Shown piece after piece: positions 1,629 through 60,946 of a stretch of 64,000 nucleotides of DNA. The notes under the pieces were generated by a model that saw only the letters and a program-made list of their open reading frames with translations, was not told the DNA's origin and did no database searches. Each line of letters starts with the position of its first letter. The first letter of the stretch is position 1. The stretch lies in contig CAZNES010000005.1 of NCBI GenBank assembly GCA_964572145.1, positions 21,642 through 85,641 of the forward strand, written 5' to 3'. A program made the position numbers and the translations under genes. Origin of the DNA: an uncultured Syntrophobacteraceae bacterium. Lineage in GTDB: Bacteria; Desulfobacterota; Binatia; UBA9968.

Positions 1629-1762
1629 CTACTTCATCCTAAACGCCGGTGGCATGACTTCATCCACGCTCTTTCCCGTCCAGTGCCATTTAGGAACGCT
1701 GTCCCAGACTGCTCGCCTTTGGCTTGAACTTTTTCCAGCAGCTCGTCTTCGTTGAGACGTAG
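1629..1762 (-). pseudogene. Orphan, frameshifted duplicate of the last ~134 nt of amidohydrolase gene 4455..5897
   Basis: Hand alignment to 4455..4589 gives 13 substitutions and one 1-nt deletion. It encodes ...VWDSVPKWHWTGKSVDEVMPPAFRMK*, versus ...VWDSVSKWHWTGKSVDEVVPPAFRMK* in the intact gene. Confidence 0.85.
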
Positions 1763-1795
1763 AGCGATTATCCCGTACGCAATCGCGGTTTCCAC

Positions 1796-2746
1796 TCAAT
1801 ACGGTCCAAGGAAACGCTTGCCATTGAAGTGAATCATGTGGTCCGGGGCGTTCGCTACCCAGACTTCGGTCTCCCACGCAATTTCCCCGAGGTACTTCAA
1901 GAACCCACGACGATCGAGAAATGCCGTCACGAACACCAGGCCTGCTTTACTACCGGCGAATAGCGCTTTCAATTCAGTGAGACGCTTCGGGTTCACCGGG
2001 CCGTGACTCGTTACTGCTTCAATGAGAACCAGCCAGTTCTTTTCGGTGAAATGCACGACCACATCCGGCATCTTGCCGTGCTCCTCGACGGCAACACCAA
2101 GGTCTCGTAGATAAGCGCCATCGAAGTAGGCCCATTTTTTGTGCGTATCGCCGACGTATATGGGCTTGCCGCAAGGAGTAAAGCGCGGACAAAACTCGTT
2201 GATAATTTTGCGTATGAGAGCGTTCTGACCGCCGGGCGATAACCTGATTGCGACACCTGGCGCGAGATCGAGCGGAATATATTGCATGTCACGCACTTGA
2301 GCATATCGCAGTGCGAGCGTTCCGAGGTCCGCTATGTAATGCCGGAGAGCGGTGTTCCACTTGGGCGTGCCAGATTCTCGAATGACGGCTATCGTCCGGG
2401 GTTCAACCTGGTAACAATATTTCGGGCTGTTTGTCGGGCGATCGGGCTGGTCAGGATTGGCCACAATCAGTCCGGCTTGCTCAAACTGGTGCAGCGTGAA
2501 TCTCCGCACGGTTTCACGCGTGTTCGGCGCCCACTTCTTCTGATAATGCTTAGCTACGAACTCCATAATCGGTGTTACGCCTCGGAGCGGATCGCTTGAT
2601 GCGGTCCAAGGCTTCTGCGGCGGCAGATCAAGGAGGGCGAGAAGGGTCAGGGCCGCTCGTTCGTTTCGTTGCTCCGGTGGAAGGCCAAAAGCAATTAGAA
2701 TTTTCTGTGCCTCGGCGATGCGTCGCTTTCGTTGGTTAGCCATCAA
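1796..2746 (-). CDS. Type II restriction endonuclease, BsuBI/PstI family-like
   Basis: N-terminus 'KILIAFGLPPEQRNERAALTLLALLDL' and C-terminal 'MPDVVVHFTEKNWLVLIEAVTSHGPV' resemble BsuBI/PstI-family enzymes as I recall them. There is a 4-nt ATGA overlap with the upstream methyltransferase gene. Confidence 0.75.
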   Translation of the reverse strand: MMANQRKRRIAEAQKILIAFGLPPEQRNERAALTLLALLDLPPQKPWTASSDPLRGVTPIMEFVAKHYQKKWAPNTRETVRRFTLHQFEQAGLIVANPDQPDRPTNSPKYCYQVEPRTIAVIRESGTPKWNTALRHYIADLGTLALRYAQVRDMQYIPLDLAPGVAIRLSPGGQNALIRKIINEFCPRFTPCGKPIYVGDTHKKWAYFDGAYLRDLGVAVEEHGKMPDVVVHFTEKNWLVLIEAVTSHGPVNPKRLTELKALFAGSKAGLVFVTAFLDRRGFLKYLGEIAWETEVWVANAPDHMIHFNGKRFLGPY

Positions 2747-4356
2747 ATCGCCTGGAGGACTTCTGTCACGAGTGCATCGAGAGCGCCTTGAGCCGGAAAA
2801 GTTCCTTCTAGGCGTCGTCCGAGCGTAACCAGAGTTTCTCTTGTCGGATAGCGCAGTGCCCGAAGGTCAGTAGCATTGACTTGCGTGTGTCCGTTGAACT
2901 GCCGGAAATAGGTGTCGAGTGCAGAGCAATTCAGGAATCCCGAAAGACCGCGTGCTAGAGTTCGCTCTAATGGTGCCCCCCGTTCGTGGAAGTAGTTGAG
3001 ATGGTTCTCGAAACCCACGACTTCACAGGGAACATTGTCAGGATCAAAGACGGCTGCCACGAGCCGGCGACGCTCCTCCTTTGCCGAGAATCGTCTCACA
3101 AGCACATACACTCCCGCAGGTACCATGAGTGATGCGCTGTCGGTATTATGCACGATTGCGTTAGGTTTTTTTGCCCCCAATCTCGGCCAGCAGATAAGAC
3201 CATTACTGAAGTGGGTTGAATAGATCAGAGGAACAGTTCCCGAGGTCGGTTCTGCCCGCAGCCACTGGCGGGCGCGGAAGTCCACAACACGCCCGGTGCT
3301 CACGCACAACCTCAGTTCGTCAAGCGTGCATGGGAGCTTCTCCATAGCCTCAGCAAGCGCATGACCATCGTCGTCTGGAACGAGGTGAATAAATGCTTGT
3401 GAGTCGCCGGGTCGCACGACATGCTCGAAAGGCACATTTCGTTGCGCCCCGGTCGGATGGTCGGGCGTGCGGCTCTGTGAGATACATACGAGGGGTTGCT
3501 GCGGCACACCTTTAAGCGCATGAAGAATCAAATTTTCTTGTAATACTTTGTCGTCTCGAAATGCGTAGTCGCGATCCTCAAAGACGTGAAGGCGCGTGAT
3601 ATTTACGTGTCGCAGTAAATGTTGCCTGAAAGGCCGGAAATATGGGCCATTGCAAAAACTCCTTGGTGTAATGGCGATCAGCTCCCCCTTTTTATCTAAC
3701 AGCAATACTGCGAGTGCCATAAAAGCCGTATAAAGATTGCTTGTCTCGATATTGAGTCGGCGCAGGAGTTGGCGAGTCCGCGACTCAGTTCGGAACTTTT
3801 TGTAGGGCGGATTAAGGATGGCGATATCAAATAGGGGATGTTCGGTCCGAAACAGTCCCGTTTCCAGGACGTCCACAGAGGCTTCGATGAAATCAGTCGC
3901 TCGCACTTCCCATTTGCATGTGATCTCTACCGCTGCGCATGCCTCTTCGCATGCCCTTAACGTTCGCTGTAGAGCGGGTAGCAGGGCTTCGTCCCGTTCA
4001 TAAGCCGTCAGGGTGACTTCCCTAGGGCGGGCTGGTCTTGAACAGATTTCAGCGACCCATGCCGCCGTCAATGCTCCGACTCCCGCGCCGGCATCTAGCA
4101 AGCGGATGCGTTCACGACAAGCTGTGCTCATGGAACCCATGAGTCGCGCAGTTGCAGGGGGAGTGAAGTATTGGCCATACTCGCTACGTCGAGCCGAATC
4201 CAATATGGCGCTCAGTTTCTGTCTGGCTTCCTCTGCTGTCCCTAATGGGTCAGGGATCGTAAGCCGTCGGCTTGGGGGTGAGTCGGGATCAGTAGCACGT
4301 CTTGAGCGGGCCTTCGGTGTAGATATCTGTGATCTATGGGTGTGTTTAGACTCCAC
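2743..4356 (-). CDS. N6-adenine DNA methyltransferase (gamma class, Eco57I/M.PstI-like)
   Basis: SAM-binding motif 'LLDAGAGVGALT' precedes the catalytic motif 'ILNPPYKKF'. Also carries 'YGQYFTPP'. At 537 aa it is paired with the endonuclease gene. Confidence 0.88.
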   Translation of the reverse strand: MESKHTHRSQISTPKARSRRATDPDSPPSRRLTIPDPLGTAEEARQKLSAILDSARRSEYGQYFTPPATARLMGSMSTACRERIRLLDAGAGVGALTAAWVAEICSRPARPREVTLTAYERDEALLPALQRTLRACEEACAAVEITCKWEVRATDFIEASVDVLETGLFRTEHPLFDIAILNPPYKKFRTESRTRQLLRRLNIETSNLYTAFMALAVLLLDKKGELIAITPRSFCNGPYFRPFRQHLLRHVNITRLHVFEDRDYAFRDDKVLQENLILHALKGVPQQPLVCISQSRTPDHPTGAQRNVPFEHVVRPGDSQAFIHLVPDDDGHALAEAMEKLPCTLDELRLCVSTGRVVDFRARQWLRAEPTSGTVPLIYSTHFSNGLICWPRLGAKKPNAIVHNTDSASLMVPAGVYVLVRRFSAKEERRRLVAAVFDPDNVPCEVVGFENHLNYFHERGAPLERTLARGLSGFLNCSALDTYFRQFNGHTQVNATDLRALRYPTRETLVTLGRRLEGTFPAQGALDALVTEVLQAI

Positions 4357-4454: not shown

Positions 4455-5897
4455 TTACTTCATCCTAAACGCCGGTGGCACCACTTCGTCAACGCTCTTG
4501 CCCGTCCAGTGCCATTTGGACACGCTGTCCCAGACCTGCTCGCCCTTAGCCTGAACTTTTTCCAGCAGGTCGTCTTCGTTGAGACGCAGATATTTGCCGT
4601 TATCTACCAGCGTCTCGCCGTCCACGATCACAGTGCGCACGTCGCGGCTGACGGCGGTTTCGACCAGCGATCTGATCGGGTCGCGTACGGCGCCGAAGGC
4701 GATGTCTTTAAGATTGATGATCGCGATGTCCGCCTTTGCGCCTTTCTGTAATCGGCCCAAGTCGTCTCTGCCGATGAGTTTCGCGCCGCCGAGCGTCGCT
4801 GCGTTGAAGACGTCGCGCGGGTGGCCGGCAACAAAACTTTTCTCCGCCACTCGCGAAGCAAGCGATGCGTAGCGCATATCCGAAATAATATCCTTGGGAA
4901 AAGTATCGGTGCCGATGCCCATGTTGACGCCGGCCTTCAAATATTTGTCGAACGATTCCATCACGATGCCGAGCTTCAAATATTTGAGCGGGCTATAGGC
5001 AACCGACGCGCCGGAGTCGGCGATGATTTTGAGGTCGTCTCCATAAGGGTAAGACAGCCAGCTATGGCCGCTGATGAAGATGCAGTGAGAGAGAGAAACT
5101 TCTGGATCGAGAAAGCCGATCTTATCCAACAGCTCGATCGGCGTGCAGCGTTCGCGCTGCATCACGGTATGGAATTCGAACAGGTTGATCGTCGCGTGAA
5201 TCTGCGCGCGCGCGCCGATCTCTTTGGCGGCCTTTCGAGTTTCTTTCAAAAGCGCAGGCGTGCACGAGTCCACGTGGCCGGGAAAGAGCATCGTCTTCAT
5301 CCGCCCGTTGCAGCCGCCGTCGAATTTTTTCGCGAACTCGACGGCGTGCTTCAATCCTTCACTTCCACGCTCGTCGTTCCAGTCGTACTCCAACCTTCCT
5401 TCGCGGTCTTGAAAGAAGTTGACGTTTTTATAGCTCGGCCCCGCATAGCAGCGGATTCCGACCTCGTCCACCATCGCGACGTAAGGCTCGGGATTTGCGC
5501 CGGCGCCGCCGATATCCAGTGTCGTGGTGACGCCGCTCTTTAAGACGTGGATCAGCGAAAAGCGCTGGCCGATATCCACGTCCTTCAAGTGGGCGTGTTT
5601 CGCGCCTTCGCGCGTCGGCGCGCCGTGAGCGAGATAGTTGGCCGCGAAGTAGTCCAGCTTGTTCGCGTCATTCAGTAGATAATCGCTCGCGTTGATGCCC
5701 GAATGAAAATGGGTATCGATAAATCCCGGCGAGACGAGGCAGCCTTTGGCATCGATCTTTTTGTCCACCGGCTCGGAATATTGTTTGCCGACGAATGAAA
5801 CCCGATCGTTTTCAAAGACCACAACGCCGTCTTTGATGATTTCGTGCTCTTGTCCATTGAAGCCGACAGCATATCCGCCTTGAATCAAAGTTTTCAA
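4455..5897 (-). CDS. Amidohydrolase-family metallohydrolase (chlorohydrolase/deaminase-like)
   Basis: 480 aa with N-terminal 'SPGFIDTHFHSG' (HxH metal motif) and typical amidohydrolase_1 architecture. Confidence 0.85.
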   Translation of the reverse strand: MKTLIQGGYAVGFNGQEHEIIKDGVVVFENDRVSFVGKQYSEPVDKKIDAKGCLVSPGFIDTHFHSGINASDYLLNDANKLDYFAANYLAHGAPTREGAKHAHLKDVDIGQRFSLIHVLKSGVTTTLDIGGAGANPEPYVAMVDEVGIRCYAGPSYKNVNFFQDREGRLEYDWNDERGSEGLKHAVEFAKKFDGGCNGRMKTMLFPGHVDSCTPALLKETRKAAKEIGARAQIHATINLFEFHTVMQRERCTPIELLDKIGFLDPEVSLSHCIFISGHSWLSYPYGDDLKIIADSGASVAYSPLKYLKLGIVMESFDKYLKAGVNMGIGTDTFPKDIISDMRYASLASRVAEKSFVAGHPRDVFNAATLGGAKLIGRDDLGRLQKGAKADIAIINLKDIAFGAVRDPIRSLVETAVSRDVRTVIVDGETLVDNGKYLRLNEDDLLEKVQAKGEQVWDSVSKWHWTGKSVDEVVPPAFRMK

Positions 5898-27311: not shown

Positions 27312-28481
27312 ATGGGGTCAGACAAAGAGCCTTTCTCCCTCTACGCGCATATCCCGTACTGCGCGGCCAAGTGCCCGTACTGCGATTTTAACGTTCACGT
27401 AGCGTCCAAAATTCCCGAGGCTGAATATGTTCAGGCATTGGTGCGGGAGTTGCAATTTTATTCGCAGTCGGACGATTGGCGCGGGCGAGAGTTGAAGAGC
27501 GTATTCTTCGGCGGCGGAACGCCTTCGCTGTTCTCGCCGCAATCCATCGGCGGGGTTCTCGACGCAGCGGCGGCGCTTTTTCCGTTGATCGATAACGTTG
27601 AGATCACGCTCGAAGCGAATCCAGGAGCGGAGGACTGGAAGAATTTTTCCGGCTATCGGTCGTGTGGCGTCAATCGGCTGAGCCTCGGCGTGCAGTCGTT
27701 TCAACCCCATCTGCTTAAATTTCTCGGCCGTCTCCATTCGGCCGACGAGACACGCGAGGCTTTGAAAGCGATCGAACAGGTTGGTTTTGAGAACTTCAGT
27801 ATGGATCTGATCTACGCCGTTCCGGGAGAATCGCTCGCGGATTTGAAAACCGATTTGACCGAGTCGCTGGCGTATTATCCGCCGCACTTCTCCGCCTATA
27901 ATCTGACGATCGAAGAGGGAACGCCTTTTTATCAACGGCTCAAGACGGGAAAAATTCGTCCATTGCCCGAAGACGAAGAGGTCTCGATGGCCGAGGTGAT
28001 CGAGGAAACGCTTGCACAAGCGGGTCTGGAACGGTACGAAATCTCGAATTACGCGAAACCCGAACGGCAGTCGAGGCATAACAGCACGTATTGGCAGGGT
28101 GGCGATTACCTGGGAATCGGCGCCGGTGCGCACTCGTTTGCAAGCCGCGAGGGAAACGGCGTACTCGGTCTTCGGTGGCGCGAAGAGAGAAGTCCCGTCC
28201 GGTACATGGAAAAAGTAGCGTGCGATGGAACCGCGGTGGTTGAAAGCGAGAGCTTGAATCGTGAAAGAGCGGCGGCCGAATTCATGTTCATGGGTCTGAG
28301 AATGACGCGAGGCGTTTCCGTCGAAGATTTTTTCCGCCGCTTTGGCCAAAAGCCGGCGGAAATTTATCCGCAGATCGGCTCATGGCTGGAAGAAGGGCTG
28401 ATGGAATCCAAAGACGCCGGGCTTCGACTGACGCGCCGCGGTCTGATGCTGGCCGACGAGATTTTTATCGCGTTCGTTTAA
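27312..28481 (+). CDS. hemW: Radical SAM heme chaperone HemW (oxygen-independent coproporphyrinogen oxidase-like)
   Basis: 'YAHIPYCAAKCPYCDFN' CxxxCxxC motif; 389 aa. Confidence 0.9.
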   Translation: MGSDKEPFSLYAHIPYCAAKCPYCDFNVHVASKIPEAEYVQALVRELQFYSQSDDWRGRELKSVFFGGGTPSLFSPQSIGGVLDAAAALFPLIDNVEITLEANPGAEDWKNFSGYRSCGVNRLSLGVQSFQPHLLKFLGRLHSADETREALKAIEQVGFENFSMDLIYAVPGESLADLKTDLTESLAYYPPHFSAYNLTIEEGTPFYQRLKTGKIRPLPEDEEVSMAEVIEETLAQAGLERYEISNYAKPERQSRHNSTYWQGGDYLGIGAGAHSFASREGNGVLGLRWREERSPVRYMEKVACDGTAVVESESLNRERAAAEFMFMGLRMTRGVSVEDFFRRFGQKPAEIYPQIGSWLEEGLMESKDAGLRLTRRGLMLADEIFIAFV

Positions 28482-28486
28482 ATCCC

Positions 28487-28933
28487 ATGCGAATCCGACG
28501 CCGCGTAAATATTGAAGCGCTTTCCGAGATGGTCTGGGACGTCATCGCCGACCTTGGCCGCGCCGGCGAGTGGGCGCCGGAATTCGGCGATTACCCGTTC
28601 ATTTCCCCGGACTGGCCGAAACTAGGCGCCAAAGCGACGTGGCGCTTGCACGCCGGCGCGCTGAAATTTGATTTCGAGCTTACGATCACGGAGTCCGTTC
28701 GCGGAAGCGCGCTACAGATCTCGAACCGGAGCGTCTTCGGCGAAGGGCTGGAGGTGTACAGCTTGGCGATGTCGGAAAAGACGACCACCGTCTGGTACGA
28801 CGCGAGCGATCAGCCGAATTTTCTCGGCCGCCTGGCGGCCAGGTTTTTCGAGAAAAAAATGATCGCGGCGATGGACCAAGCCATGGCGGGCTTGAAAGTT
28901 TACTGCGAACGTAGGGTCAAAGGCGTTCCGTGA
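28487..28933 (+). CDS. SRPBCC-superfamily protein
   Basis: Start 'MRIRRRVNIEALSEMVWDVIADLGRAGEW'. The track ORF start at 28382 overlaps hemW. Confidence 0.65.
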   Translation: MRIRRRVNIEALSEMVWDVIADLGRAGEWAPEFGDYPFISPDWPKLGAKATWRLHAGALKFDFELTITESVRGSALQISNRSVFGEGLEVYSLAMSEKTTTVWYDASDQPNFLGRLAARFFEKKMIAAMDQAMAGLKVYCERRVKGVP

Positions 28934-29415
28934 AAGATCGCAGCCACGCTCACGTCTATCGCTTCGAAGACCGTTGGCACGTACCGTTTACCGCTGAAAA
29001 AGTTTGGGAAGTGCTGTCGCGGCCGGAAGATTATCCGCGCTGGTGGCGCGGCGTTTACTTGAGCGCGAAGCCGCTGGATCATAGCGGCAAGCGAGTGGCG
29101 GTCGTGGCCAAAGGCCGGCTGCCCTATAAGCTTCGGTTCACGATCGAGACTCTGCGCACGGAAAAACCCAGCCTGATTGAATTTCGCGCCACGGGAGATT
29201 TTGTCACCGACGTTTCCCGCTGGAGACTTGAGCCCGATGGCGAGGGGACAGCGGTGACTCTCGAATGGAATCCGAAAGTCGAAAAGCCGCTGGTAAAATT
29301 TCTCTCTCCGATCTTGAAGCCGCTTTTCCGCTGGAATCACGAGTGGACCATGAAGCGCGGGCAGAGGCAGATCGTGGAGTATCTGAAGAACGGTGGAGGC
29401 GGTCAAATCAAGTAA
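28930..29415 (+). CDS. SRPBCC-superfamily (polyketide cyclase/dehydrase-like) protein
   Basis: 161 aa with a GTG start overlapping the previous stop. 'FTAEKVWEVLSRPEDYPRWW'. Confidence 0.7.
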   Translation: MKDRSHAHVYRFEDRWHVPFTAEKVWEVLSRPEDYPRWWRGVYLSAKPLDHSGKRVAVVAKGRLPYKLRFTIETLRTEKPSLIEFRATGDFVTDVSRWRLEPDGEGTAVTLEWNPKVEKPLVKFLSPILKPLFRWNHEWTMKRGQRQIVEYLKNGGGGQIK

Positions 29416-29448
29416 GGGCCGGCTGGGGCTTACGCTACAGGCGCTTTA

Positions 29449-29760
29449 TTAAAGGCCGTTCCTATGCGACATTGCGCGCCTTGCTTCGTTGAAGGCGAGC
29501 TCTTCCAGTTCTATTCGCTCTTTAATAATTCGCGCTAACCATTCTGCAACATTTTTCTCTCTGTGCAACCTTGCCAGGAATGCAGCACGAGCAGCCAACT
29601 CGGCTGGAAGAGATAACGCGGTCGGATTTGCTCTGCGAACTTTGATCGGTTTTTCCCAAGCTGAATCTTCCTCAGCTTGCGATGCTACAACGTTATCGAT
29701 CTCTTCTTCGGAAAATTGGCGTCTCTTAGATTTCTTTTTTGAATTCATAACGGCCATCAT
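29449..29760 (-). CDS. RHH/CopG-type antitoxin partnered with a DUF497-like toxin
   Basis: 103 aa with C-terminal 'LSLPAELAARAAFLARLHREKNVAEWLARIIKERIE'. ATGA overlap with the upstream toxin gene. Low GC. Confidence 0.65.
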   Translation of the reverse strand: MMAVMNSKKKSKRRQFSEEEIDNVVASQAEEDSAWEKPIKVRRANPTALSLPAELAARAAFLARLHREKNVAEWLARIIKERIELEELAFNEARRAMSHRNGL

Positions 29761-29996
29761 GTGATTATTCGCACAACATTGTTGGTTTTAAGTTGAAAGA
29801 TAATTTTGAGTTTGCGCCCCCCTAGCGTCTCCCCGATGAGCTGGTAGCGATCTTTGTATTTCTTGTTTCGACGAACTTGGAAATCGGAAAAGAAACATTC
29901 GACGGACTCATAGAACGTGACTCGATGCGAAGCAAGTTTGTCATTCTCGAAATCATATTCAAAGTCTGAAGGGGTAAATCGGTCCCATCTAACCAC
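29757..29996 (-). CDS. BrnT-like (DUF497) ribonuclease toxin candidate
   Basis: 79 aa with a GTG start. 'FEYDFENDKLASHRVTFYESVECFF...VVRIIT' resembles the BrnT pattern (FEWDxxK...HGVSFxEA...RIIS). The toxin-first gene order matches BrnTA. Confidence 0.55.
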   Translation of the reverse strand: MVRWDRFTPSDFEYDFENDKLASHRVTFYESVECFFSDFQVRRNKKYKDRYQLIGETLGGRKLKIIFQLKTNNVVRIIT

Positions 29997-30097
29997 CGCT
30001 TTATTCTACCTTGTACGCCTTATCTTTTAAAGGCGTCCGATACCGTGGCTTCAACGCCGGATACTAAGCAATCGCACGGCGGCTCGACAAAAATTCT

Positions 30098-30426
30098 GCA
30101 AGCGGGTGGTGGTCGTGGCCTAGGGCCGGTTGCCATACAAGCTGCGGTTTACGATCGAAACGTTGCGGCTCGAAAAGCCTGGGCTGTTCGAATTTAGGGC
30201 GACGGGCGATTTTGTTACCGACGTGTCGCGTTGGGTGCTGAAACTGGAAGGCGAGGGGACAGCGGTGACTCTCGAATGGAATCCGCGAGTCGAAAAGCCG
30301 CTGGTAAAATTTCTCTCGCCGATCTTGAAGCCGCTTTTCCGCTGGAATCACGAGTGGACCATGAAGCGCGGGCAGAGGCAGATCGTGGAGTATCTGAAGA
30401 ACGGTGGAGGCGGTCAAATTAAATAG
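30098..30426 (+). pseudogene. Duplicated 3' fragment of SRPBCC gene 28930..29415, with an in-frame TAG
   Basis: Aligns with 29087..29415 without gaps. TAG at 30121-30123 replaces an AAA codon. The distal ~175 nt are nearly identical, while the proximal ~155 nt differ at ~39 positions (hand count). Confidence 0.85.
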
Positions 30427-30488
30427 CTCAATCGCCAAATACAGAGGTCGATTTTTTTCGTAATTTGCCGCTTCGACTCTTTCTACAG

Positions 30489-30624
30489 GCTTAACGGGGC
30501 GCGGGATGAGCCGCCGGACCCGAAGCGCGCTTGCGCGCGTGGGGCCGGTCGGTTCTATCCCGCTGATAGGCGGCGCGCGAGCGACGCCGCTCAGCGGGAT
30601 ATCTCATCCCGCGCCCCGATAAGC
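30489..30624. other. GC-rich ~135-nt imperfect palindrome with attC-like outer boxes (hypothesis)
   Basis: gcttaac + ggggcgcgggatgag (30489-30510) pairs with ctcatcccgcgcccc + gataagc (30603-30624). There is an inner hairpin atcccgctga/tcagcgggat. Confidence 0.3.
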
Positions 30625-30886
30625 GGATCGGCGAAGCCGAAGCGAGCGACCACTTCACGGAACCAAACTGTTTCAATTTCACTGCGTTCGCTTCACTCAT
30701 CTCCATCGTTTCAATTCTAGGCGTCGCGAGCGGTCCGCTTATCTATGAATATGCCGGTCGGCATAACACGGGTCGTTAAGTTTTTTTTGACGGCAGTGAT
30801 TTTCTTGTCTTTCCAAAGGCTTGTCGAACATCTTAACCCTCCGCCGGCGATTGCAAAAGGCCGACCGCTTGGTCGGCATATTACCA

Positions 30887-31063
30887 TTATGGCCGTCCAG
30901 ATCCCAATTCGTCTGCGGGGCTGCGAACTCCCTTGCCGCCGTGATTCAAGACATGGGTATAGATCATCGTCGTACTGACATCTTTGTGCCCCAAAAGATC
31001 CTGCACGATTCCGACGGCGAGACGGGTCAAGCGCCGTCTCTCCGCAAATTCCGCGGGTGTTGT
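30887..31063 (-). pseudogene. C-terminal relic of an integron-integrase-type tyrosine recombinase
   Basis: My own translation of the minus strand: ...[44 protein letters not shown]. An upstream in-frame stop lies at 31064-31066. The catalytic-Tyr region and a 'GGxGVRSPxD' tail are as in IntI proteins. Confidence 0.6.
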
Positions 31064-31124: not shown

Positions 31125-32000
31125 CTAAGAGCCGAACGGAATTAGCCCGTCTCGTCCCCTACGGTAGTTTTGCTGCGTCTGTTCTGGATTACGGTTGACG
31201 AACGGGCGGTGGTAGAGCGGATGGCGCAGGCTGCGGACTTCGTGCTCTAGCTCGTGTAGCTTCTCGCCGCTTTTGGGATCGACGATTTCTTTGAAGCGGA
31301 ACTGATGGTTGCGGACATCTTCGGTGATCAGGCCGTGGCTGTTCAAGAAATTGTACGGGCCCGAGAAGTTGGCCACGTAGATTGCAATGTGATGGCCGTC
31401 GTAGGGAAGAAGTGCTTGATCCGTCTCGCGGAATAAAAGCCACTGATTGCGGCCGATCGCGACGCGGGCGGTCGAGAGACTTTCTGTCGGTTCGATGACA
31501 GATGTCGCGCGTATGACTTCTTGATAAAAGCGCGCGATCCCTCCGGCCGCGCCGGGTTTTACTAGGAATTCAATATAAGGAACTCCCAGCGCCATGTCGC
31601 CATACTTATCCTGCGGCGCGTAGCAGCGAAAATGATTGCCCCAGGGGCAGGTGACGGCGAGGTGGTCGCTCTCGCGCGACCATGCAAACAAAGTTCCTTT
31701 GAGACGCTCATCCAGGGATTTCAGTCGCTGCGCCAAGCTCTCAAGCTCCGGCACGACCAAGCCGACGTGGCCGGAAAAACGCTGCGCCGCGCGCGTTGGC
31801 AAATGAAACTGCTGTTCGCCCGCGTTGACCCACATGTTTTCCAAGCCGATGGTGAGATAAGGATCGCGCGTAAGTCCCAGGCCGATGATGTAGAAGAGCA
31901 TCGCCTGCGCCTGGTCGACTACCTGGACGTTGAGGTGTTCGAGCAAAACGATATTGCCGACATCCTCATGGGTAGGGTCCATAAGTCTTAGTATTCCCAT
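31125..32000 (-). CDS. Hypothetical protein, possibly VOC (glyoxalase/dioxygenase)-fold
   Basis: 291-aa ORF with G/C-rich third codon positions. Fold assignment is a weak impression only. Confidence 0.5.
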   Translation of the reverse strand: MGILRLMDPTHEDVGNIVLLEHLNVQVVDQAQAMLFYIIGLGLTRDPYLTIGLENMWVNAGEQQFHLPTRAAQRFSGHVGLVVPELESLAQRLKSLDERLKGTLFAWSRESDHLAVTCPWGNHFRCYAPQDKYGDMALGVPYIEFLVKPGAAGGIARFYQEVIRATSVIEPTESLSTARVAIGRNQWLLFRETDQALLPYDGHHIAIYVANFSGPYNFLNSHGLITEDVRNHQFRFKEIVDPKSGEKLHELEHEVRSLRHPLYHRPFVNRNPEQTQQNYRRGRDGLIPFGS

Positions 32001-39409: not shown

Positions 39410-39513
39410 CTTCCTTCGAGACCTTCGTGGTTAAAATCCTCTCACCACGTCAGCCACCAAACTTTGGCTGATCCGTCCTTTGGCGGAAAGAGCACGAAGC
39501 GCACGAAGTTCGG
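39410..39513 (+). repeat. Mosaic intergenic repeat, copy A (modules m1+m3+m4+m5)
   Basis: cttccttcgagaccttcg|tggttaaaatcctctcaccacg|tcagccaccaaactttggctgatccgtcctttggcggaa|agagcacgaagcgcacgaagtt. See copies at 46236, 60544 and 63452. Confidence 0.85.
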
Positions 39514-46235: not shown

Positions 46236-46393
46236 CCTTCCTTCGAGACCTTCCTGTCCGCCAGAGGACGGATCAGCCACAGTTTTTAAGGCTGATCCTT
46301 CGTGGTTAAAATCTTCTCACCACGTCAGCCACCAAACTTTAGCTGATCCGTCCTTTGGCGGAAAGAGCACGAAGCACACGAAGTTTGGATCAT
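46236..46393 (+). repeat. Mosaic intergenic repeat, copy B (most complete: m1+m2+m3+m4+m5)
   Basis: It contains m2 (gtccgccagaggacggatcagccacagttt...) and its inverted relative m4 (...aaactttagctgatccgtcctttggcggaa) flanking hairpin m3. Confidence 0.85.
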
Positions 46394-60543: not shown

Positions 60544-60656
60544 GTGGTTAAAAAGTTTATCACCACGTCAGCCACCAAACTTTGGCTGATCCGTCTGCGC
60601 CAATGGACGCATCCGTCCGAGGCCCTGTGGCGGACTTTGGCGGAAAGAGCACGAAG
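60544..60656 (+). repeat. Mosaic intergenic repeat, copy C (m3+m4 with a ~40-nt internal insertion + truncated m5)
   Basis: gtggttaaaaagtttatcaccacg|tcagccaccaaactttggctgatccgtc[...]tttggcggaa|agagcacgaag. Confidence 0.8.
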
Positions 60657-60670
60657 ATCAATAATTCCGG

Positions 60671-60946
60671 CTATCGAGCCCCGCCGTACTTCGGGTCGTT
60701 GCTGATTATTTTCTTGGCGAAATTTTTTATCTGGGCGGCCACGGGTCGGATCGAGTAGAAGGTGGTCTCCCAGATTTCGTCTTCGGTTGCGCCGAGCTTG
60801 CGCGCTCTGTCGAGATGAAGCTTGGCGCCGTACTCGTGTCCGATGGCGAGGTTTACTGCAAGACGGATGAGCTGCGCCACCTTGGGTTCCAGAGCGCCTT
60901 CTTTGTACTCGATGCCGAAAAATTCCATTGGTTTAACCATGGTCAT
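60671..60946 (-). CDS. Carboxymuconolactone decarboxylase (AhpD-like) family protein
   Basis: 91 aa with 'LEPKVAQLIRLAVNLAIGHEYGAKLHLDRARKLGATEDEIWE'. Confidence 0.75.
   Translation of the reverse strand: MTMVKPMEFFGIEYKEGALEPKVAQLIRLAVNLAIGHEYGAKLHLDRARKLGATEDEIWETTFYSIRPVAAQIKNFAKKIISNDPKYGGAR

Follow-up and report, generated by a model that had tools for sequence, protein, structure and literature searches.

Toxin-antitoxin and restriction-modification (R-M) modules are widespread, and most of them carry no mobility genes. Campbell-type (single-crossover, 'ends-in') integration yields an intact hybrid gene, the insert and a truncated hybrid copy, with the exchange point at the same place in both copies. 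Some integrative elements insert at gene 3' ends and bring a replacement for the end that they displace, and integrase-less derivatives of such elements arise by tandem accretion. For R-M systems, insertion with long target duplication was reportedly already described by Nobusato et al. in 2000 (Gene 259:99). A later account of 'insertion with long target duplication' describes repeats of variable length, more than 30 and up to about 420 bp, which frequently extend across the stop codon, so that the target gene survives; mobility genes are absent and an empty site is found in a relative (Furuta, Abe & Kobayashi, 2010; PMC2853133). The criteria for this class were an insert of less than 20 kb, no other mobile element, and the presence of homologues of both the restriction (R) and the modification (M) gene, and a virus-like cycle of insertion, amplification and release was proposed for R-M systems, release and reinfection being then without evidence (PMC2853133). 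Here we analyse a stretch of 64,000 nucleotides (the window) of contig CAZNES010000005.1, from an uncultured bacterium of the Binatia lineage, in which a small toxin-antitoxin cassette lies between an intact gene of the SRPBCC family and a second copy of the last 329 nt of that gene.

The layout of this locus matches the class known from R-M systems. An addiction-type module without a mobility gene lies between direct repeats that exceed 30 bp, being 329 nt long at the toxin-antitoxin locus and ~135 nt around an R-M pair elsewhere in the window, and the repeats at the toxin-antitoxin locus align to a single-copy empty site in a related contig (L082). Unlike the described cases, the insert is a toxin-antitoxin pair and not a pair of R and M genes, the two repeat copies are reciprocal chimeras of native and foreign sequence, and several different modules are found at one gene. 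In addition, an integron remnant and attC-like sites lie 63-460 nt past the gene-end fragment, whereas the class was defined without other mobile elements. The toxin-antitoxin case extends the class to another type of module and adds reciprocal allele chimerism, and chimerism of such a kind would bear on the 'release and reinfection' step. A shallow literature search returned no published description of toxin-antitoxin modules with such an insertion.

A repeat finder detected a 300-nt direct repeat at 29087 and 30098, and in ungapped register, at an offset of 1011, the repeat spans 29087-29415 and 30098-30426 on the plus strand, which bears out the gapless 329-nt duplication proposed in a preliminary description of this DNA. 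The stop codon ends both copies, and similarity is absent beyond either end. The left copy is the end of an intact SRPBCC (Polyketide_cyc2) gene of 161 amino acids (28930-29415, plus strand; Pfam E 1.3e-13), the length and synteny of which are the same in relatives. The right copy is a 5'-truncated pseudogene, in which an in-frame TAG (30121-30123), also recorded earlier, stands in place of the AAA codon at 29110 of the gene. The insert between the copies comprises 682 nt (29416-30097), well short of the 20-kb limit, and holds no mobility gene. The gene-end repeat is a real feature and no assembly artefact, because an independent Logan contig (L001, run SRR6155503) matches the window at 100% identity over 29379-30419, across the junction of cassette and fragment, and contigs of two other runs stop exactly where both copies start sharing 31-mers, as expected.

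The two copies differ at 45 sites, 39 of which lie at 29094-29238 (in the first 152 nt) and only six at 29275-29415 (in the last 177 nt), in agreement with an earlier hand count of ~39 and ~6. A maximum chi-square scan placed a breakpoint after 29238 (chi-square 34.3, permutation p ≤ 2e-4), and the abrupt step in identity that had been suspected near 29239/30250 persisted in the alignment. Third codon positions account for 30/45 differences, and the codon differences comprise 24 synonymous and 11 non-synonymous changes. In the proximal part, synonymous divergence (dS) between the copies was 1.35 and non-synonymous divergence (dN) 0.116 (dN/dS ~0.09); in the distal part the values were 0.10 and 0.011. 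Because the proximal differences are mostly synonymous, the proximal part of the fragment represents another functional allele and not local decay, as the preliminary description had suggested.

Differing sites were polarised against eight close relatives, with relatives drawn throughout from one scan of genomes and one of metagenomes. Over 29094-29205 the fragment was the odd copy at 22/27 differing sites, while over 29214-29238 it was the intact gene that was odd, at 11 of 12 sites (Fisher p 2.6e-5 for the contrast). The same inversion was seen when each copy was compared with the relatives directly. Over 29087-29212 (30098-30223 in the fragment), the fragment differed from every relative sampled at 24-29 of 126 sites, mostly synonymous, and the intact gene differed from close relatives at 3-9 of these 126. 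Over 29213-29240, the fragment differed from close relatives at 1-4 of 28 sites and the intact gene at 10-12 of 28, the latter being at only three sites distinct from a contig of another lineage of ~80% identity (L107). The fragment thus holds a foreign-allele part (30098-30222, plus strand), ~20% divergent from all alleles sampled and chiefly at synonymous sites, and the intact gene holds a short foreign patch (29213-29240, plus strand), which encodes RLEPD where close relatives have VLKPE and matches L107 at 25 of 28 nt. In P0003, the protein of L107, the TLRLEKP of the fragment occurs together with the SRWRLEPDGEGT of the gene. From the switch in polarity and the P0003/L107 allele we conclude that the foreign material is one contiguous stretch of ~154 nt from a diverged functional allele, split between the two copies at 29206-29213. 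An identity step had previously been read as a recombination or gene-conversion junction. A junction is indeed supported, but there are two of them, the reciprocal switch of the foreign state at 29206-29213 and the separate step in identity at 29238/29239. The distal part of the fragment and its flank are L082-like at the diagnostic sites 29307, 29409, 29412 and 29415.

Such a reciprocal mosaic most likely results from a single crossover of the chromosome with a circle that would have carried the cassette and a foreign gene end. We propose that a 0.6-kb promoter-toxin-antitoxin unit arrived on circular or circularised DNA that also bore the last ~330 nt of the SRPBCC gene from another lineage. 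Host homologous recombination would then have exchanged this gene piece with the resident gene by one reciprocal, Campbell-type crossover near 29206-29213. The predicted product, from left to right, is an intact gene with a native 5' part and an incoming 3' part, the cassette, and a displaced fragment in which the incoming proximal part is joined to the native 3' end and downstream flank. A further step would be needed for the distal ~175 nt, either a later gene conversion between the copies or an incoming piece that was already mosaic from earlier rounds. We infer that a circle took part, that RecA was needed and in which order the steps occurred, and, judging by the sequences compared, consider single-crossover homologous integration of a circle bearing cassette and gene end the most likely explanation, with a probability of roughly 0.55. 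The layout in the window equals the product expected of Campbell-type integration; it differs from the textbook case in being a natural event between alleles that are about 20% divergent, in its extra identity step, and in that no circle was observed. It also resembles 3'-end integrative elements in that incoming sequence rebuilds the gene and the native end is displaced past the insert, which is clear in two of the relatives described below (L002 and L084). Unlike those elements, the unit here has no integrase and no short identical core, and its repeats are long mosaics of variable length with homology on both sides of the exchange point.

The empty site was found in L082 (93% nucleotide identity), where a single SRPBCC gene runs straight into the sequence of 30427-30496, so that the uninterrupted locus called for in the preliminary description does exist. 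This stretch forms a constant flank, present 3' of the single-copy gene in L082 and 3' of the fragments in the window and in contig L109, and it ends at GGCTTAAC. In L085 and L086 (~79% identity), the SRPBCC stop codon is 12 nt from the next core gene, which in the window is a convergent gene of 291 amino acids (31125-32000). None of the relatives examined carried two full-length copies of the target gene. Single-copy empty sites in relatives rule out that the fragment is a decayed tandem paralogue, the outcome that had been named beforehand as contradicting an insertion.

Among relatives, the interval from the SRPBCC gene to the next core gene is a hypervariable hotspot. The same architecture recurs there with other cargo and other duplication lengths, which speaks for single-crossover integration. 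L109 contains, in order, the SRPBCC gene, an open reading frame (ORF) of 64 amino acids, MazF, MazE, a gene-end fragment from ~29260 and the constant flank; L008 retains a remnant of this MazEF unit (the antitoxin gene only) together with a gene-end fragment that likewise starts at ~29260. In L002 and L084, an intact gene with a ~50% divergent foreign tail from ~29354 is followed by two small membrane ORFs and then by a fragment that retains the native tail and the native flank. MazEF lies directly 3' of the SRPBCC gene in L107, and at the equivalent spot in L108 (388-4713) there are genes for a patatin-like protein, an S8 peptidase and a protein of 421 amino acids, a block that may be of a defence type. 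The duplications measure 329, about 156 and roughly 100-170 nt in the different events and have no common left boundary. Two short 'fragment' proteins from metagenomes (P0039 and P0077) were considered as further duplications and rejected, since they are 5' deletions of the sole copy.

The architecture also recurs at other genes. A related cassette at 87% nucleotide identity (contig L111) adjoins a fragment of 52 amino acids of HRDC, the C-terminal domain of RecQ, and a 13-kb contig (JGI 3300056388) with the antitoxin of L111 (89% identical to that of the window) has the cassette between an intact RecQ gene, on its antitoxin side, and the HRDC fragment, on its promoter side, which is the layout of the window. 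Within the window itself, a BsuBI/PstI-type restriction enzyme and an Eco57I-like methylase (1796-4356, minus strand) are bracketed by the end of an intact amidohydrolase gene (4455-5897, minus strand; last 135 nt at 4456-4590) and by a displaced, frameshifted copy of that gene's last ~135 nt (1630-1763, minus strand), so the R-M case reported earlier at 1.6-4.6 kb does have the same architecture. These two copies are about 90% identical, with 12 mismatches and a 1-nt deletion in the fragment; the mismatches are evenly spread, without an identity step, unlike those of the toxin-antitoxin repeat. As far as tested, the R-M pair fits the class of insertion with long target duplication.

The surroundings of the cassette contain traces of an integron. 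A remnant of 58 amino acids from the C-terminal end of an integron integrase (30887-31063, minus strand) matched NCBIfam TIGR02249 at E 1e-13 with 51 bits (cut-off 265), whereas Xer models gave no better than 1e-7; the remnant is common to the window, L008 and L002. A 136-nt attC-like hairpin (30489-30624, minus strand; GCTTATC ... GTTAAGC) has a predicted DNA fold of -65 kcal/mol (z -8.9). The window and L082 cease to be similar exactly at the GTTAAGC end of this hairpin, at GGCTTAAC (30489-30496), which is the G|TTAAGC recombination point on the minus strand, and L082 and L109 continue past the constant flank with canonical attC-like sites (L082 with the strict pattern; L109 with GCCTAAC ... 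GTTGAGC and two extrahelical bases). Pattern scans for attC were insensitive; a relaxed scan could not map an array, and controls gave two hits in 61 kb. The integrase remnant and the attC-like sites mark the interval from the SRPBCC gene to the 291-amino-acid gene as a probable degenerate integron-like variable region with minus-strand cargo. It shares with chromosomal integron arrays an integrase remnant, attC-like sites and small, mostly same-strand cargo that varies between close relatives and includes toxin-antitoxin modules. Unlike array cargo, the cassette studied here lies beyond the end of the attC-bounded part, inside the gene-end flank, lacks an attC site and has copies of a host gene end on either side. 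Searches of the cassette junctions found no recombinase gene, inverted repeat or attC-like structure, and neither an R-box pair nor a stable hairpin (fold z-scores 0.2 and -0.7). An integron cassette was rejected as a reading of the unit, as its ends show no attC, and the integrase remnant cannot be blamed for its insertion. The integron-like region probably makes the neighbourhood tolerant of such cargo without explaining the junctions of the cassette. As to the 'recombinase-free' route claimed in the preliminary description, a RecA-type route is still the best reading given junctions without attC features, but the integron-integrase remnant and the attC-like sites had been overlooked.

Several observations weigh against integration by a single crossover with a circle. 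The relatives compared are metagenome contigs throughout. The foreign proximal part of the fragment has no close match among the sampled alleles, L107 fitting the 28-nt patch and not the 126-nt segment, and no donor genome was found in which the cassette follows a foreign-type SRPBCC allele. Over the distal ~175 nt only six sites distinguish the two copies, yet each copy differs by 6-10% from relatives; a single crossover alone does not explain this near-identity, which calls for a further conversion event or a donor that was already mosaic. The cassette family also occurs in the context of a thiamine pyrophosphate (TPP) enzyme without flanking repeats. One and the same GCCGGCT motif immediately precedes three different cargo blocks, of which two are toxin-antitoxin modules, and this common start hints at a site preference that plain homologous recombination leaves unexplained. 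The attC-like sites begin 63 nt past the fragment and the integrase remnant 460 bp past it, which is close. A circular form suggested by L001 (1041 nt, a 1011-nt period plus a 30-nt terminal overlap) was set aside as uninformative, because a de Bruijn assembly graph gives the same cycle from a chromosomal repeat and the gene-side path was not assembled in SRR6155503. The gene-side contig of that run (L135) stops at window position 29088, 1-2 nt inside the left boundary of the duplication, which may reflect chance or low coverage.

These points give some room to other explanations. The window and its relatives probably come from metagenome assemblies, and repeats are prone to chimeric joining, so that two strain variants might have been joined; in view of the contig that crosses the junction at full identity, the contigs of two other runs that break as expected with both copies present, and the analogous structures in unrelated samples, we give this hardly any credence. 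One could also dispense with the circle. The layout of gene, cassette and fragment would then be pre-existing, or would have arisen by one-sided homology-facilitated illegitimate recombination, and allelic recombination would later have shuffled segments, leaving the copies as independent mosaics. Relatives do show clear mosaicism in their SRPBCC alleles and in the region downstream, the L082-like sites in the distal part of the fragment and its flank are in keeping with this, and the distal near-identity demands an extra event under every model. For independent mosaics, however, the switch of the odd state in the same 8-nt interval of both copies is a coincidence, whereas it is the direct expectation of one reciprocal exchange, and the origin of the duplication itself is left unexplained. 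We therefore regard an origin without a circle as unlikely, although it deserves to be kept in view.

A tyrosine recombinase, either the integron integrase of the remnant 460 bp away or one acting in trans, might instead have inserted small units that carry a surrogate gene end. The shared integrase remnant, the joining of attC-like sites to the constant flank at the same G|TT point in three relatives, and the single spot at which cargo varies between relatives, with three blocks starting after GCCGGCT, would all be consistent with site-specific integration. It is nevertheless a doubtful explanation, since the integrase is a 58-amino-acid stump, the cassette ends show no attC-like hairpin or R-box pair, duplication lengths vary and left boundaries are not shared, the element side would have matched the gene to the left and to the right of the exchange point, unlike the usual attP layout, and the same cassette is found at a RecQ gene end with an HRDC fragment. 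Finally, the cassette could have inserted at staggered breaks or at a replication fork and doubled 329 native nt in place, with imported DNA later overwriting the fragment in its proximal half and the gene over a short patch. The near-identity of the distal 175 nt is what a local duplicate would show, and the original R-M literature settled on no mechanism and brought up double-strand breaks as a possible factor. Here a non-functional fragment would have to be overwritten by a foreign segment with the divergence typical of a functional allele, and a complementary patch in the gene ending at the same coordinate would be needed as well, which makes at least three events; we judge in-place duplication improbable.

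A broader proposal is possible, and we offer it tentatively. Small toxin-antitoxin cassettes, like R-M systems, might be recombinase-less mobile units that take along a piece of the host gene behind which they lie, loop out via their gene-end repeats and re-enter the same gene in other lineages by one host-mediated crossover; the chimerism described here would then be a natural footprint of 'release and reinfection', and one gene end in the Binatia lineage would have been used repeatedly by at least three cargo units. If true, nothing beyond host recombination and a captured stretch of the target gene would be needed to explain the movement of modules between related genomes, their location exactly at gene ends and the survival of the target genes. 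The chimeric repeat, the varied modules at one gene and the RecQ-end cassette are concrete cases on which this can be tested, and gene-end fragments beside such modules can record the donor allele.

The conserved core of the cassette, which comprises promoter, toxin and antitoxin (29449-30037, minus strand), shows 86-87% nucleotide identity to copies elsewhere, and its homology to other contexts ends at the antitoxin stop codon. Its GC content is 0.447, against 0.571 for the window, in line with the low-GC toxin-antitoxin pair first described between the copies. A promoter-like site, TTTAAA-17-TAGAAT (30003-30031, minus strand), lies upstream of the toxin gene, with its -10 end in sequence common to L111 and a further homologous contig, L112. 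The toxin candidate, BrnT-like and of 79 amino acids (29757-29996, minus strand), matched the Pfam family BrnT_toxin (PF04365) at E 1.4e-6 with 28.9 bits, under the cut-off of 34.5, and the L111 homologue scored 35.9 bits, over the cut-off; a PDB sequence search with the toxin returned no match. In the window the toxin stops at a TGA (29757-29762) where the homologues in L111 and L112 read GGA, so that the last four of 83 amino acids are lost, and, as far as can be read from this change, the window toxin may be attenuated.

The partner gene encodes an antitoxin candidate of 103 amino acids (29449-29760, minus strand) from an abundant unannotated family, and overlaps the toxin gene by 4 nt (29757-29760). 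All of its 531 homologues whose context was read lie beside a BrnT-type gene, and the pairing seen in the window is also present in L111, L112 and the RecQ contig. For the antitoxin, no match (no BrnA and no ribbon-helix-helix) came from Pfam, NCBIfam, a PDB profile search or a Foldseek search against PDB, and plasmid and phage collections contained none either. In its AlphaFold model (predicted local distance difference test, pLDDT, 72), only two C-terminal helices are confident. The pair resembles BrnT/BrnA type II systems in having a small toxin with a BrnT-domain match, upstream of and overlapping a small partner, a pairing kept in homologues. It differs from them in that the window toxin falls below the Pfam cut-off and its partner fits no BrnA, ribbon-helix-helix or other family and no solved structure.

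Between the antitoxin and SRPBCC stop codons there are 33 nt (29416-29448), and this left junction spacer starts with GGGCCGGCT, a motif that also stands right after the stop codon in relatives with other cargo. GCCGGCT was found directly 3' of the SRPBCC stop codon in the window (29416-29424), L008 (10487-10497), L081 (604-612) and L107 (1229-1242). It resembles the end of the convergent 291-amino-acid gene (CTAAGAGCCGAACGG; 31125-31138 in the window), and may be native flank that moved together with each gene end, as a remnant of the original gene-to-gene junction.

The target gene is the second of two tandem SRPBCC genes, which overlap by 4 nt (28487-28933 and 28930-29415) and lie directly 3' of a HemN-family radical SAM gene (27312-28481). 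The upstream member of the pair is a distinct paralogue present in all relatives. Because the order of the SRPBCC pair and the HemN-family gene is kept in relatives down to ~72% nucleotide identity, the target is a core gene and not cargo. An exact-protein look-up of the SRPBCC product gave no record. Past the SRPBCC locus, the 291-amino-acid gene described above is the next core gene in the window.

Other elements were noted in the variable region. A frameshifted gene for an IS200-like Y1 transposase (Pfam Y1_Tnp) lies at 11079-11944 of L008, and the end of this element (…TGTCAGACTTGCCTAACTCTACTAACTCGCCAG) cuts the SRPBCC fragment in L008 (11045-11100) and a small antitoxin-like ORF in L084 (2640-2720). 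Small minus-strand ORFs share parts with one another, the N-terminal part being common to the window (30491-30706) and L002 (5560-5760) and the C-terminal part to L002 and L081 (616-807); the window ORF (30491-30706, minus strand) is broken by the 136-nt hairpin element. An upstream ORF of 41 amino acids in L081 (782-907) had no family match. Rfam scans of the region and of the whole window, and a tRNA scan, returned no matches, including for a repeat family of ~92 nt elsewhere in the window. Two copies of this family (39422-39513 and 46297-46388) are 96% identical, and a partial third copy lies at 60551-60595 (and 60635-60685). The repeats hold short internal hairpins, one copy folds well (z -4.4), and the family may be a small dispersed repeat or a miniature mobile element.

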